Of a stretch of DNA of 51,466 nucleotides, positions 14,093-19,809 are shown one piece after another. The stretch spans positions 1-51,466 of the forward strand of contig CAYPFT010000004.1 of assembly GCA_964410165.1 (NCBI GenBank), in the 5' to 3' direction. Within the stretch, counting starts at the first letter, position 1. Each line of letters opens with the position of its first letter. The notes below the pieces were generated by a model, which was not told where the DNA came from, did no database searches, and saw nothing but the letters and a program-made list of their open reading frames with translations. Both the position numbers and the translations under genes were made by a program. The DNA comes from an uncultured Candidatus Saccharibacteria bacterium (GTDB lineage: Bacteria > Patescibacteriota > Minisyncoccia > Phycocordibacterales > CAIJYI01).

Positions 14093-14461
14093 ATGGAAGA
14101 AATTGAAAAAAGCGAGGCGATTGAGCTTGTTAAGAAAGTAAAAGAAGCAAGCGCAATAGAAGTAGCGTTTCTTAAAGACAAGCTTGACAGAGATAGCGCA
14201 AAAGGATTTCTGGAACTCAGAGAACATGGTGACCTTATTGAGATGAGAAAAAAATGGTCATCTGGCGTCTTTTGGCTTCTTGTTCTGATTATTTTTTCTG
14301 ACGTAGGCTTCTCTTGGGCATTGGGATTTGGGGCGTTATCGTTTGATAGCGATTGGTCCGTTCCGGCATTTATCGGTGATGGACTTATTAAAACTTTAGG
14401 GCTTGCTTTCATTGTTGTGCATTTCCTTTTTAATAAAGATTCGTTAAAAAATAAATTATAG
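14093..14461 (+). CDS. 2-TM membrane protein
   Basis: Charged helical N-terminus and two hydrophobic segments; 7 nt after peptidase stop. Confidence 0.8.
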   Translation: MEEIEKSEAIELVKKVKEASAIEVAFLKDKLDRDSAKGFLELREHGDLIEMRKKWSSGVFWLLVLIIFSDVGFSWALGFGALSFDSDWSVPAFIGDGLIKTLGLAFIVVHFLFNKDSLKNKL

Positions 14462-14521
14462 AAACGAATGTTGTTGAGTAAAGATAAATCCCGAAGATCT
14501 TATTCTTGAGACAAACGCACC

Positions 14522-14546
14522 CCACCTTTTTTCAGGTGGTTTTTTG
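14522..14546 (+). terminator. Intrinsic terminator of peptidase/2-TM operon
   Basis: CCACCT-6nt-AGGTGG followed by T6. Confidence 0.65.
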
Positions 14547-14650
14547 ATAGTGCGAGTGTTATGGACGGATACACAAACAAAATAAATTTAACATCAGAGA
14601 TGTGGTTTCAGAAAAACTTGCGGAATTGTGGCGGGCTTTTTCGGCTATCC

Positions 14651-14681
14651 ATTTTTACACAGTATAGTCCTGTGTAAAAAT
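14651..14681. promoter_or_regulatory. Operator-like inverted repeat upstream of R-M operon
   Basis: ATTTTTACACAG-TATAGTC-CTGTGTAAAAAT, perfect 12-bp arms. Confidence 0.5.
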
Positions 14682-14803
14682 TTTCGCGTGCATTTTTTTT
14701 GGTTTTTTGGTAGGATGGGGGAGTAGGAAAAAGAAACGCAAAATCAAATCATCTTGCCTAAACTCGCGCGGATTTATTTTCGGCGGGCATGGCTTAAATA
14801 AAA

Positions 14804-14960
14804 GCATCAGCAACAGAAACGGTCCCCCGACCGTCCCTCGTTGCTGATGTCTATGTCCCGAAAGGGCATAGGGTGGTTTCCGAAAGGAGCCATCGGACGC
14901 GTTCGGAGGACCATTTGTGTACCCGAAAAGCGTTTTATAAAAAACATCAGCAACAAAAAC
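14804..14960 (+). ncRNA. Candidate structured 5' leader RNA of mod
   Basis: Two GAAA-tetraloop hairpins with G-U pairs, alternative long-range stems, 11-nt segment complementary to the sequence just before the ATG. Confidence 0.6.
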
Positions 14961-16880
14961 ATGAGCTCATTATTATATGAGCTGCCTCGTATTGTGGACG
15001 AAGGGAAAAAGGAAGTTGATCGGATACTGGAACGTTTGAACGGTTCCGACCGGCTCGCCCTTCAAACCAACGAAATCGTTTTGCCCGCGAAGGATTCGGC
15101 GGAGGCGAAACTTTTTCAGAGCGACGCGACTCAAAATGAAAAAGAATGGATGAATCGCCTTGTGTACGGCGACAATCTTTTGACGATGCAGGCGCTGCTC
15201 TCGGGCGATCGCGAAAGCGGGCTGTCGTCAATGCGCGGGAAAATTGACCTTATTTACATTGACCCGCCGTTTGACAGCAAGGCGGACTATCGTACGAAAG
15301 TTACGCTCCCCGGAATTGACTTGGAACAAAAACCGACCGTCATCGAACAGTTCGCCTATTCCGACACATGGAAAGACGGCACGGTTTCGTATTTGAAAAT
15401 GCTCTATCCACGGCTCGCACTCATGCGCGAGCTTCTTTCCGATAAGGGCTCAATTTATGTCCATATTGATTGGCACGTCGGGCATTATGTGAAAATTTTG
15501 TTGGATGATATTTTTAAAAAACACCATTTTAGAAATGAAATTATTTGGTGGTATCATATGGGTGCGAAATCAAGGTCAGAATTTAGTAATAAACATGATT
15601 CAGTATATCGTTATACAAAATCAGATAATTTTGTATTTAACATTGGTGATGTGAGAACTCCATTTAAGGGAACTTCTGCCGATAATAATTTTTATTTTGT
15701 TGACAAAGACGGGCGAAGGTATCGAGAAAAACCTGACAAAAAAACAGGTAAAAGATACCGCTATTATTTGGACGAAGGACAGCTACCAGACGATGTCTGG
15801 GAAATTGCCACAATACCAGCGATTTCAAATGAAAGGATTGGTTATGCTACACAGAAGCCCGAACAGCTTTTAGAACGAATAATAAAAGCCTCCTCAAACG
15901 AAAATTCCATCGTCGCCGATTTCTTTTCCGGTTCGGGGACGACTGTCGCCGTGGCGGAAAAATTGGGTCGGCGGTGGATTGGTTCCGATATCGGGAAACC
16001 AGCCGCGCTTATCATGCGCAAGCGGCTGATTGATCAGGAAGCGAAACCGTTTTTGTATCAGTCCATCGGCGATTATCAAAAAGAGGCGTTCACGTCTTCG
16101 CGACAGTTTCGGCGCGTGGGGGATTTGGCGCAGGTCGTGTTGCAGCTCTACGGCGCGATTCCTTTTGCGGATGCCGGCAATAATTCTCTGTTGGCAAATC
16201 GCAATATCGGCTATATCAAAGATTCCCGCACGCTCGTCGTCGTGGATTCGCCGAATAAAATGACCGGTCTTCCGACGCTTAAAAAGGCGCAGGAATTGAA
16301 AGCGAGTTTTATGGGCGGGTGGAGCAAGGTCGTCGTGCTCGGCTGGAATTTCACCTACGACATTACGGAGGCGATACAAACGCTCAATGACGACAAATTG
16401 GAAGTGCTAGTTATTCCGCCCGACCTTTTGGATAAGCTGAAAACAAAAGCGAGCTACAAAGATTTGATTCAGAGCAAAAAAATCCGTTTTTCGTCGCTGC
16501 AGTATCTTACCATCAAGCCGATTACCGCGGAAAATATAACCGACACGGAAGAAAGTTTGCGCATTGAGCTTGATAACTACGTACTTCTCTCGCCCGACAA
16601 CATCCCGCTTGACGATAAAGACAAAGAAAAACTGAAAGAACTTATCAAAAAAGATCCGCTCTCGCTCATTGAATACTGGAGCGTTGATCCCGACTACGAC
16701 GGAGTTACTTTTCGCAGTTTGTGGCAGGATTATCGCGAGAACGAAGAGAACGACGGCGATCCGTACCATTGCATAAACCGCGCCATACTGACCGTGTCAA
16801 AAAAATCGGAGCGAACGGTGTGCGTGAAAGCGGTGGATGTTTTCGGTTTTGAGAGTTTTGTAACGGTAAATTTGAAATAA
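14961..16880 (+). CDS. mod: Type III R-M adenine methyltransferase (beta class)
   Basis: [12 protein letters not shown] (motif IV), [14 protein letters not shown] (motif I); adjacent to helicase-nuclease. Confidence 0.9.
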
Positions 16881-16884
16881 ACAT

Positions 16885-19809
16885 ATGCCATCACCCATAA
16901 GCATCGGGACAAAAAGCGTACCGCTTGAGCTCGCAAAAATAATTACGAAAAAAGCGAACGAAAGTTTTGCGGACGGAGAAATGTTTTCGCGCGTGTCTTT
17001 GGTTACTCAGGACTTGCTGAAATTTTGGTTTCTGCCTCCGCATACGGAAACGCGGCTCATCAATTTTCATGAGGGGCAGAGGCAGGCGATTTTGAATACG
17101 ATTTATCTGCATGAAGTTTTGGGGACGAAAAGCGTTCGCGAAGCGTACGAAAATGTCGCGCCGGAACTTTTGACGGAAATGGATTTTTCCGAACTCGCCA
17201 AAGCGAAATACGAGATTCCGAAATATGCGATAAAAATGGCGACGGGAACGGGGAAGACGTGGGTGATGCACGCGCTTCTTTTATGGCAATATTTGAACGC
17301 GCGGCGTGAAACGGAGCGAGAGAAATTTTCCGGAAAATTCACGAAAAACTTTTTGCTCGTCGCGCCCGGAATCATCGTCTACGAACGCTTGCTTGACGCC
17401 TACTTGGGAAAAGAAAACGAGAACGGCGAGCGAGTGTTCGAGCAGTCCGATTTTTACAAATTCAAAGAGCTTTTTCTTCCGCCGAATTACGAAGCGGAGG
17501 CGTTCGGATTCATACAAAACAGCGTGGCGAAGAAAACGGAAATCGGTACGAAATCAACCGGCGATGGACTTATCGCCATCGCGAACTGGCATTTGTTTTT
17601 GGACAGGGAAGAAAAAGAGGAGGAAGAAAGCGGCTCCGCGTATGACGACCCGCAGGCAATAGTGAACGAATTGCGGCCGATAAAACCCGGAGTTTCCGGC
17701 GGAAACTCGCTTGATACTTTGGACGCCGCATATTTGGGCGGGCGGGAAATCGATTACCTGGCGAGCTTGCCGGACTTGATGGCGATAAACGACGAAGCGC
17801 ACCACATTCACGAAAACAAAGTATACGGCGAACTGAAAGAGGTGGAGTGGCAAAAAAGTTTGAATAAAATCGCGGAGAAAAAAGGGAAGCGGTTTATACA
17901 GGCGGACTTTTCCGCAACGCCGTACGATGTAACGGGGAACGGACACAATCGCACGAAACATTTTTTTCCGCATGTCGTGGTGGATTTTGATTTGAAAACG
18001 GCGATACGGAGAGGCTTGGTGAAAACGATAGCGATAGACAAGCGAAAAGAATTTACCGACGAACAAATAGAATTTTCCGCGATCAAAGAAAACGGGAAAA
18101 TCATCGGGCTTTCGGAAGGGCAAAAATTGATGCTCCGCGCCGGACTTCGCCGTCTCAAAATTTTGGAGGAGCATTTTGTGGAATTTACGAAAGACAAAAA
18201 CGGCGTTTCGGGAAAACACCCGAAAATGCTGGTGATGTGTGAAAATACGGAAGTGTCGCCGCTCGTCGTGGATTTTTTGAAAGACGAGGGACTTTCCGAT
18301 GAAGATGTGATTCGCGTGGATTCAAATAAAAAAGGCGAAATTCCGGAAGCGGAATGGCTCTCGCTCAAACAAAAACTTTTCAGCATAGATCGGCACGGCA
18401 AGCCGAAAGTTATCGTTTCGGTTTTGATGCTGCGCGAGGGGTTTGATGTGAACAATGTGTGCGTCATCGTGCCGCTCCGCGCGAGTTCGGCGCCGATTCT
18501 CCTTGAGCAGACCATCGGGCGCGGGCTTCGGCTTATGTGGCGAGAGCCGGAATTTTTGGAAACGAAGCAAGAAAATATCAGAAGAATTATCGCGGAGAAA
18601 AAAGAGCCGTCGCATTATTTGGATATTTTATCCATCGTTGAGCATCCGGCGTTTCTGCAATTTTACGATGATTTGGAAATGGTCGGCGAAACGACGGAGG
18701 AACCGGAAGGCGCGAAAGGCGTGCTCGGCGACATCATCAAAGTCGGACTAAAAGAAAATTATGCGGAATATGATTTGTATTGGCCTTTGATTATCAAGGA
18801 GTCGGAAGAAGACCTCGTTTCGGGAAACGTCGGCGTAGAAAAATTGGAGCCGTTCACGGTGTACCCGCTTTCGGATTTGCAAAAGTTTTTCGGCAAAGAC
18901 GGCGAGCGTTTTGTCGCGGAAGAAATGACGGTCAAAACGAGGTTCGGCGAGTATTTCGTGGACGGCGCGCTTTTCAATTCGCAAAGCTACAACGAGTATT
19001 TGGAAAAACTGCTTAATGTCGTGATAAATCGCACGGCGAAGATCGGCGCGCGGCAGAAAAGAACGTTTCCTGCGATGCAGATAAATCAGCTTGAAGTGGT
19101 GAAAACGATTGACGCATTTATCCGTACGAAACTTTTCGGGATGGAATTCGACCCGCTTGAAGGAAATAATTGGAAAGTTTTGCTGGCGAAAAACGGCGTG
19201 GTAACGGAGCATATCATCAAGGAAATAGGAAAAGTGATTTTGGAAATGCAGAACACAATCGATGTTTCCGAAGCGAAAATTGAGAAGCGGTATTTTTCGG
19301 AAGTTTCGGACTTGCGGATGCGCGAGAATTATTCTGTGCTAATTGTGAAAACGATTTATGAGCGGCTGCCGTATCCGTCAAACAAAGGCGAGTTTGAAAA
19401 AGCGTTTTTGGAATACGCCGACGGCGATGGAAAAACGGAGGCGATTATGAAAGTAAACGAATATTACCACAACTTTGCGAATGTAACCTATATCAGGATG
19501 GACGGATTTTTATCGCTCTATTATCCGGACTTTATCGTGAAAACCGCCGAAAAAGTTTATTTGATTGAAACGAAGGCGGACACGGATTTGCACGATCCGA
19601 ACGTGCGGCAAAAGAAAATCGCCGCGCTTGATTTCGTGAAGCGGATAAACGGCCTCCCACCCGACAACCGCATGGGGCGGGAATGGGAGTATGTTTTGCT
19701 CGGTGAAAATCATTTTTACGGCTTGAGCCGAAACGGCGCGTCGATTGATGAAATTTGCACACTGGCGAAAGTAACGCTTGCGAACGCGGAGGGGCGGTTG
19801 TTCGGGTAA
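16885..19809 (+). CDS. res: Type III restriction endonuclease/helicase subunit
   Basis: MATGTGKT, DEAHH, SAT, LREGFD, EQTIGRGLR; C-terminal YYPDF..IETK PD-(D/E)xK nuclease. Confidence 0.9.
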   Translation: MPSPISIGTKSVPLELAKIITKKANESFADGEMFSRVSLVTQDLLKFWFLPPHTETRLINFHEGQRQAILNTIYLHEVLGTKSVREAYENVAPELLTEMDFSELAKAKYEIPKYAIKMATGTGKTWVMHALLLWQYLNARRETEREKFSGKFTKNFLLVAPGIIVYERLLDAYLGKENENGERVFEQSDFYKFKELFLPPNYEAEAFGFIQNSVAKKTEIGTKSTGDGLIAIANWHLFLDREEKEEEESGSAYDDPQAIVNELRPIKPGVSGGNSLDTLDAAYLGGREIDYLASLPDLMAINDEAHHIHENKVYGELKEVEWQKSLNKIAEKKGKRFIQADFSATPYDVTGNGHNRTKHFFPHVVVDFDLKTAIRRGLVKTIAIDKRKEFTDEQIEFSAIKENGKIIGLSEGQKLMLRAGLRRLKILEEHFVEFTKDKNGVSGKHPKMLVMCENTEVSPLVVDFLKDEGLSDEDVIRVDSNKKGEIPEAEWLSLKQKLFSIDRHGKPKVIVSVLMLREGFDVNNVCVIVPLRASSAPILLEQTIGRGLRLMWREPEFLETKQENIRRIIAEKKEPSHYLDILSIVEHPAFLQFYDDLEMVGETTEEPEGAKGVLGDIIKVGLKENYAEYDLYWPLIIKESEEDLVSGNVGVEKLEPFTVYPLSDLQKFFGKDGERFVAEEMTVKTRFGEYFVDGALFNSQSYNEYLEKLLNVVINRTAKIGARQKRTFPAMQINQLEVVKTIDAFIRTKLFGMEFDPLEGNNWKVLLAKNGVVTEHIIKEIGKVILEMQNTIDVSEAKIEKRYFSEVSDLRMRENYSVLIVKTIYERLPYPSNKGEFEKAFLEYADGDGKTEAIMKVNEYYHNFANVTYIRMDGFLSLYYPDFIVKTAEKVYLIETKADTDLHDPNVRQKKIAALDFVKRINGLPPDNRMGREWEYVLLGENHFYGLSRNGASIDEICTLAKVTLANAEGRLFG

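Follow-up and report, generated by a model that had tools for sequence, protein, structure and literature searches.

A LOOT RNA at the head of a mod-res operon

The stretch of DNA analysed here (the window: 51,466 nucleotides (nt), positions 1 to 51,466 of contig CAYPFT010000004.1, assembly GCA_964410165.1) carries on its forward strand a gene for a Type III-like DNA methyltransferase, mod (14961-16880; PF01555, 1.9e-46), followed by the gene of a restriction subunit, res (16885-19809; PF04851), and the element of interest is the putative RNA leader that precedes the two. Homologues of mod align from residue 1, so 14961 is its start, and res begins 5 nt past the mod stop, so that the two genes are probably co-transcribed.

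Examination of the forward strand upstream of mod revealed three related boxes. Box1 (14804-14814), read directly as GCATCAGCAAC, belongs to the 5' arm (14804-14816) of a long hairpin, P3, and box2 (14840-14850, GTTGCTGATGT) belongs to its 3' arm (14838-14850). Box3 (14944-14954, ACATCAGCAAC) is a copy of box1 separated by the 6 nt AAAAAC from the ATG at 14961, and box2 is therefore the common partner of box1 and box3. P3 encloses the inner hairpin P4, ACGGUC-CCCC-GACCGU (14819-14834), and is followed by two hairpins with GAAA loops, P5 (14851-14871) and P6 (14872-14894), the latter with G-U pairs. Direct reading bore out the boxes, the nested hairpin, the two GAAA hairpins and the start codon as described in an earlier, sequence-only reading of this DNA. 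A further hairpin, P1/P2 (14756-14793), which that reading did not include, was placed by family alignment and predicted fold. Beyond P6 lie a segment called P4' (14895-14912), which can pair with 14821-14836 in an alternative long-range fold, and a weak U-rich tract, TTTGTGT (14914-14920), at the place where most relatives have CTTTTTGT. Within the 51 kb window, exact matches to the 10-mer CATCAGCAAC are limited to three (two direct copies and one inverted), all inside 150 nt; the whole 1.27 Mb genome has five.

The window matches the Rfam family RF03000, LOOT, at 14755-14894 (55.1 bits against a cut-off of 46.4, E 1.2e-9), over model positions 1-121 of 121 and on the + strand only. The sequence-only reading had recognized no known family here; the leader is a LOOT RNA. 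This is the single match in the whole window at the curated Rfam thresholds, and a permissive scan of 14450-15100 yielded, besides LOOT, chance-level matches only. The complete LOOT helix set is present, P1/P2, nested P3/P4, and P5 and P6 with GNRA loops, and is reproduced by the minimum free energy (MFE) fold. The segment 14795-14975 folds at -65 kcal/mol (z = -6.7, with 0/200 shuffles as good), with the P3/P4 arrangement (fold A) as the MFE structure; folding of the - strand is weaker (z = -4.4).

The alternative pairing of 14821-14836 with 14895-14912 (fold B) is a predicted 15-bp duplex of -25.7 kcal/mol. Box2 has a predicted pairing energy of -18.5 kcal/mol with box1 and of -18.2 kcal/mol with box3, and therefore has two almost equal partners. 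For the RNA up to 14924, fold A is predicted at -73.6 kcal/mol and the long-range fold at -66.9 kcal/mol; up to 14975, the values are -80.7 for fold A, -79.6 with box2 paired to box3, and -70.4 kcal/mol for the long-range fold alone. Fold B together with the box2:box3 helix forms a pseudoknot, and the folding programs used score nested folds only. The sequence-only reading is corrected on this one point: the combination is not nested, since box2 lies inside the fold-B helix. Each of the two pairings is conserved and covaries, as shown below.

Rfam types LOOT as 'Gene; sRNA' (small RNA) of unknown function, the motif having come from a survey of 224 motifs (Weinberg et al. 2017; PMC5737381). 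A figure legend calls it a metagenome-based RNA (PMC7779021), it has been described with about 43 base pairs in six helices and 28 cross-covariations (PMC7657543), and it is listed in a table of the Rfam 15 paper (PMC11701678). The discovery paper (PMC5737381) does not name LOOT in its main text, and its per-motif supplement may say more. In our literature search LOOT RNA was met only in Rfam and CaCoFold papers, none of which, in the parts consulted, assigns a host or a function. The main texts describe neither a 3' segment complementary to the P3 interior, nor a U-run, a start-codon copy of box1 or co-orientation with a gene, some of which the 2017 supplement may mention. Subject to that supplement, the two-state architecture across the family and the locus-specific box at the start codon appear to be new.

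The internal loop of P1 in the window is CCUAAAC/GCAUGG. Across the family its two strands read CCTAAA or CCTAAC in 87/91 loci and GCATGG or GTATGG in 70/91, and the P5 loop is GAAA in all 87 parsed members; P6 loops vary (GAAA in 29, GCAA in 26, TTCG in 13). The P1 loop, CCUAAC/UAUGG or CCUAAAC/GCAUGG, resembles the 11-nt GAAA-tetraloop receptor, for which variants such as CCUAAG_UACGG and CCUAAAG_UAUGG have been named (bioRxiv 10.1101/2024.03.11.584472). In LOOT, by contrast, the 5' strand ends in C instead of G, and an extra A together with CAUGG is seen in half of the members.

LOOT was found in 30/101 genomes of relatives, 41/151 genomes of an order-level sample and 30/151 of a phylum-level sample, each including the window genome (29/100 relatives and 29/150 phylum-sample genomes without it), and in 0/14 control genomes. 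The sampled LOOT genomes all measure 0.4-1.4 Mb and most have one copy; the window genome (97% complete, 47% G+C) has two, differing in sequence. The locus DNA occurs in groundwater metagenome runs and the closest mod homologues sit in metagenome-assembled genomes (MAGs) of Patescibacteria, so the small-genome hosts sampled here are probably Patescibacteria. A mobile repeat such as a miniature inverted-repeat transposable element, expected in many near-identical copies with terminal inverted repeats and target duplications, was rejected on the number of copies and their difference in sequence. In all, 94 loci were oriented and 91 lay above the Rfam cut-off used; three below it (L030, L031, L045) were excluded from all counts, and L012, L051 and L038, missed by the fold-based parses, were added by eye from the repeat listing.

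Two conserved pairings that exclude each other

For each locus, the P3 interior was compared with the 40 nt past the Rfam 3' end, the control being partners swapped between genomes. Native long-range duplexes averaged -25.5 kcal/mol against -14.05 (standard deviation 4.9) for swapped ones, 86/88 native loci reached -18 kcal/mol or lower against 21% of swapped pairs, and the median rank of the native partner was within the best 2.3%. With a median of 18 bp, the helix takes in the A-rich linker, both P4 strands and the P4 loop, its 3' side including the U-run CTTTTTGT. The P3 interiors form 18 clusters by sequence; for 14 of the 18 cluster representatives, the native partner was the best of 18. 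T-runs follow the Rfam 3' end in 67/88 loci against 32/88 in the control region.

Covariation was tested on a plain MAFFT alignment (A3) of 88 sequences, with a 20-pair helix taken as the consensus of the per-sequence predictions. This helix was paired in 88.4% of 1730 cells against 71.0% after shuffling, with changes on both sides in 20/20 pairs, 306 double-change cells against 93, and a covariation score of 0.552 against 0.238 (0/500 shuffles reached the observed value), although these statistics are inflated both by the relatedness of the loci and by the derivation of the tested structure from the same sequences. Sliding the long-range partner by 1-3 columns lowered pairing to 44-54%. The accepted LOOT helices reach 77.1% pairing and a score of 0.571 in the same alignment, and the P4 hairpin (helix 2) also covaries; covariation of both folds, a check suggested in the sequence-only reading, was found across the 88 aligned loci. 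At the window locus itself, a contig from run X8 has 14826 C>T together with 14907 A>G, which converts a C.A mismatch in the long-range helix to U.G.

The long-range helix leaves a median of 0-1 nt of the 20-25 nt P3 interior unpaired at either end. With the entire interior taken up, a closed P3 with P4 cannot form at the same time. When the core and the following 30 nt were folded, the MFE structure was the P3 fold in 50/88 loci, the long-range fold in 38/88 and never both. The energy difference between the P3 and long-range folds averaged -2.2 kcal/mol (standard deviation 5.7), and lay within 5 kcal/mol in 49/88 loci. The analysis shows that the deposited LOOT model stops too early: beyond P6 lies a 3' part with a second, covarying structure that excludes the first.

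The third box is the other conserved feature beyond the model. The longest exact repeat shared by the LOOT core and the following 15-220 nt measured at least 9 nt in 43/91 native loci against 43/455 swapped combinations, and at least 10 nt in 33/91 against 17/455. This repeat corresponds, in 37/91 loci, to the basal 9-15 nt of the P3 5' arm, with its copy 31-60 nt past P6; in 27/34 parsed loci an ATG-led open reading frame (ORF) begins 1-7 nt after the copy. Pairing of box2 with the downstream region reached -14 kcal/mol or lower in 33/88 native loci against 12/880 swapped. The downstream box, whose conservation in homologues the sequence-only reading had made a test, is conserved as a relation and not as a word, with about 28 distinct, unrelated box sequences across the loci; 54/91 loci lack it. 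An expectation that genes without box3 carry GGAGG was dropped: Shine-Dalgarno-like words are rare in both groups (1/32 with box3, 5/49 without), in a count that left out L028, L066, L078 and L046, where the ORF picked was not the one adjacent to box3.

An orthologous series illustrates the relation. Box1 and box3 read CATCAGCAAC in the window, CCTCAGCAAC at L028, a locus of the same genus, and CCTCAGCTAC at L097, whose mod is 72% identical, and box2 is complementary to the changed boxes in all three. On the X8 contig, which may come from the same lineage as L028, the changes 14806 A>C, 14848 T>G and 14946 A>C occur together. At L098 the box1-box2 helix contains a U.G pair, and both of two tandem box3 copies give C-G with box2; by sequence comparison this locus favours pairing over mere copying of the box.

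Gene context of LOOT loci

In 81 loci the longest downstream frame has the same orientation as LOOT; in four it has the opposite one, and three loci have no such frame. Start codons are mostly 30-100 nt past P6 (median about 57 nt). Of the upstream neighbours, 21 share the LOOT strand and 44 do not. Co-orientation with this spacing suits a cis-acting leader with alternative folds.

In the window, a terminator-like hairpin on the + strand (14522-14545; stem 14522-14539, then TTTTTTGATA) ends the upstream gene group, and the LOOT-mod unit therefore needs its own promoter. By eye, a candidate extended -10 element, TGGTAGGAT (14708-14716, +), lies about 40 nt before LOOT; it was unflagged by the consensus scan, and L028 shows TGTTAGTAT at the matching place. 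The promoter scan flagged only a weak TTTACA-16-AAAAAT pair within a perfect 11-bp palindrome (14651-14682, TTTTTACACAG-TATAGTC-CTGTGTAAAAA) situated between the upstream terminator and LOOT. This palindrome has weak hexamers on both strands and could be an operator or a bidirectional terminator. At many loci across the phylum (e.g. L004-L027) a -10-like box is followed by ACAACTGAATA (variants ACAATTGAATA and ACAATTTAATA) 10-25 nt before P1, a word that probably marks the 5' end of the transcript. A small GNRA hairpin stands between this word and P1 in L001, L003, L009, L011, L060 and L065; the window and L028 have neither the word nor the extra hairpin. Farther upstream, a conserved block, TTGATAAC ... 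CTTCGCAA ... TAAGCTAAGGTACA ... and the palindrome TAGCAAATTTTGCTA, precedes the LOOT promoter in L008, L009, L014, L017, L020, L022, L033, L060, L064, L070, L175, L178 and L179, with TTATCCACA in its place in L021 and L025. The block could be an operator, an attachment (att) site or a DnaA-box-like word.

Immediately 3' of the mod AUG, an inverted-repeat scan detected a 7-bp hairpin, AGCUCAU...AUGAGCU (14964-14983, +). It is identical in L098 and reads AACTCAT...ATGAGTT, with both sides changed, in L028, and may contribute to start-site control.

No pathway is common to the 34 Pfam families matched by the 85 first downstream genes. Among them are zinc-ribbon (membrane) proteins (6), staphylococcal-nuclease homologues (5), superinfection-immunity (3) and SHOCT (3) proteins, N6_N4 methylases (3: the window, L024 and L044), D12 methylases (2), T5orf172/MUG113 (3) and HNH (2) proteins. 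DNA methylases make up 6/85 of these genes, and LOOT stands upstream of 3/20 of the closest mod homologue loci. A mod-specific leader was rejected on the latter count, several of the remaining homologues having upstream tRNA genes. Directly upstream tRNA genes are seen at L101, L109, L110 and L129 (other Patescibacteria and a gammaproteobacterial MAG), which suggests insertion of islands beside tRNA genes. LOOT would serve these bacteria as a leader for accessory and mobile genes in general and is not a dedicated restriction-modification control; of the riboswitch-like leader proposed for restriction-modification expression, the arrangement as a cis-acting leader with two folds is supported and the specificity is not.

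One LOOT subtype and its box can precede unrelated genes (L013 and L098; L012, L055, L178 and L179), and one gene family can follow different boxes, so the leader appears to travel as a module ending at the ATG. Further box copies beyond the cargo genes were found in 2/67 loci, the chance level. Upstream, where 65/85 ORFs were scanned after exclusion of short or clearly spurious frames, a divergent large serine recombinase lies about 150 nt from LOOT in 8/65 loci. Recombinases with Resolvase, Recombinase and Zn_ribbon_recom domains are seen at L012, L018, L029, L030, L046, L047, L051, L061, L065 and L070, where the cargo gene behind LOOT varies and the gene beyond the cargo is conserved again in L012, L018 and L046; such loci look like a variable slot within a mobile element. 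The other upstream neighbours include AbiEii-like, AbiV, SIR2, reverse-transcriptase and ParB genes, one each. LOOT, with box3, accounts for four of the five IMG/VR pattern matches.

In the window, an ImmA/IrrE-type metallopeptidase gene (PF06114, 13597-14085) and two small ORFs with no counterpart in Pfam lie just upstream of LOOT-mod-res, a neighbourhood that suits an accessory or mobile island. Among the upstream ORFs scanned here with Pfam, none contains a helix-turn-helix (controller-type) domain. At L028, LOOT and box3 are intact, and what follows them is a mod remnant: about 24 N-terminal codons are kept, the frame then ends, and the next gene is restriction-modification-like and unrelated. 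One related contig, from run X6, aligns with the window at P1/P2 and at the mod N-terminus, with 169 other letters in place of 14804-14956, from the start of box1 to the end of box3, so that the whole P3-to-box3 unit is replaced or diverged.

A proposed bistable leader and its alternatives

We propose, with a probability of roughly 55%, that LOOT and the approximately 65 nt beyond the Rfam model act as a bistable cis-acting leader combining a terminator/antiterminator with a start-site lock, a reading built on sequence comparison and modelled folds. LOOT would form the 5' end of the mod-res transcript. In state A, the Rfam fold, box1 and box2 would form P3 around P4, leaving P4' and box3 free; the P5 GAAA loop would perhaps dock into the receptor-like P1 loop and clamp P3/P4, polymerase would read on, and the start codon would be open. 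In state B, which requires P3 to open, the P3 interior (A-rich linker and P4 including its loop) would pair with P4' and the U-run over about 18-20 bp, giving a helix that resembles a terminator stem with A-tract and U-tract, and the freed box2 would pair with box3 just 5' of the AUG and block initiation. We infer that the two folds interconvert and that state B terminates transcription or blocks translation; which state would serve as default, and in which direction switching would run, are equally conjectural, and the balance might be tipped by tertiary stability or Mg2+, by a ligand or a protein, or by the kinetics of transcription.

Several observations weigh against this proposal. For the window itself, the predicted energy of fold A is 7-10 kcal/mol more favourable than that of fold B, and the consensus terminator scan made no call at 14895-14925, where the tract is the weak TTTGTGT; because of this weak tract, termination may matter less in the window than the start-site lock. 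Across the family the terminator-like helix has a median of 18 bp, with a T-run in 67/88 loci, but its stem would enclose about 65 nt (box2, P5 and P6), which is unusual for intrinsic terminators, and the U-run is itself partly inside the long-range helix. The lack of box3 from 54/91 loci means that the start-site lock is not universal. Where present, box3 nearly always repeats box1 letter for letter (346 positions are identical, 8 differ with pairing kept, and 29 differ and are unpaired, mostly at box ends), so that pairing and mere duplication are weakly separated. The inflation of the covariation statistics noted above also counts against the proposal, and the absence of a shared function among the cargo genes argues against a metabolite riboswitch.

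Among the closest known systems are the expression platforms of riboswitches and attenuators, with terminator/antiterminator and sequestration of the ribosome-binding site. LOOT shares with them a serial competition, of box1 with box3 for box2 and of P3/P4 with a stem and U-run, and a structured 5' domain with a putative tertiary contact directly upstream of a gene. Conserved, mutually exclusive pairings downstream of a structured domain, as in riboswitches, are present in LOOT; regulated genes sharing a pathway that would point to a ligand are not found among its 85 genes and 34 Pfam families. The element sequestered here is a locus-specific word of 9-15 nt in about 28 versions instead of a Shine-Dalgarno sequence, and the putative terminator stem, as opposed to that of attenuators, spans about 65 nt of folded RNA. 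With the LOOT family as deposited the leader shares a full-length match, the same six helices and the same kind of small-genome hosts; it differs in extending to the start codon, while the Rfam model, typed as an sRNA, stops at P6.

Fold-back inhibition, and tac and ucb boxes, are known from hok-type mRNAs and the IS10 transposase mRNA, in which locus-specific complementary boxes shut the start region of a potentially harmful or mobile gene and alternative long-range pairings time its opening. Unlike these systems, LOOT has a conserved scaffold with a putative tertiary contact; it lacks an antisense partner gene, does not require a toxin and is homologous to them neither in sequence nor in structure. 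Known controls of restriction-modification genes include C-protein switches and phase-variable mod genes; the LOOT leader likewise precedes a mod-res operon, but the same leader precedes many unrelated genes.

Among the alternatives, LOOT could be a separate sRNA, the long-range helix and U-run being its terminator or closing stem and box2 a seed acting in trans on box3 of the neighbouring mRNA, transcribed from its own promoter in the spacer, and perhaps on other targets. The Rfam type, the excess of T-runs after the Rfam 3' end and the 54 loci without a nearby box3 are in line with this, as are the up to seven copies in genus g1, where different P3 boxes stand before the same downstream sequence (L040, L041, L043), and TTGTGT-N15-TATAAA (14915-14941), which by eye could be a weak internal promoter. 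However, a transcription unit of its own is at odds with the 81/85 scorable downstream frames on the LOOT strand and their short distance from LOOT, unexpected for a free-standing gene; the spacer between U-run and box3, at 10-38 nt, is usually too short for a promoter; and box2 is buried within P3 in the Rfam fold. Moreover, a target search in the window genome for the second LOOT copy gave chance-level matches: 9-letter words from its P3 arm occur at chance frequency genome-wide, and the sole one adjacent to an ATG is internal to a longer frame that is open throughout. We therefore regard a free-standing sRNA as rather unlikely.

Less probable still is a static leader, a stabilising or processing 5' element without switching, in which the long-range helix and a shortened P3 coexist as a pseudoknot and box3 is a by-product. 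Such a leader would be compatible with the covariation of both helices, with a compact, fixed tertiary fold as suggested by the GAAA-loop/receptor contact, and with programs that do not score pseudoknots. Yet the long-range helix takes the whole 20-25 nt interior of P3 and leaves no linker for a closed P3 of 11-13 bp, the P4 hairpin, which is incompatible with that helix, also covaries, and a by-product would not hold 9-15 nt of identity in about 28 sequence versions.

Finally, it is very improbable that the boxes act at the DNA level, as duplication scars or as recombination sites exchanging cargo behind a platform of serine recombinase, promoter and LOOT: the eight recombinase neighbours, the mixing of subtypes, boxes and genes, the exact swap of 14804-14956 on the X6 contig and the IMG/VR matches would agree with it, but box2, inside the repeated unit, is complementary in every version, which target duplication does not explain, cargo genes have no flanking box copies above the chance level, 57/65 loci have no recombinase beside LOOT, and box3 of L098 fits box2 better than box1.

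Extending the bistable leader further, a portable expression module for acquired genes could be spread through the whole phylum (Patescibacteria), with LOOT as both its sensor and its lock. A conserved promoter and tertiary-folded RNA would respond to a cellular or infection signal, a freely variable P3 'address' would be copied before the start codon of each cargo gene, every module would lock its own gene alone through termination and start masking, and, in some lineages, the module would form an integron-like capture platform beside a large serine recombinase in a variable slot. We offer this wider scheme as speculation and consider it unlikely as a whole.

LOOT has been in Rfam since 2017-2020 without known host or function, and is now found in about a fifth to a quarter of the sampled small-genome bacteria of the Candidate Phyla Radiation (CPR) type. 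The bistable leader turns this orphan motif into a hypothesis that can be tested by mutation, that of an RNA locking its own gene. In a phylum where very few regulators are known, it would be among the earliest regulatory RNAs put forward for genes of accessory, defence and mobile kinds. For the window, it suggests how mod-res may stay low or conditional without a controller protein.

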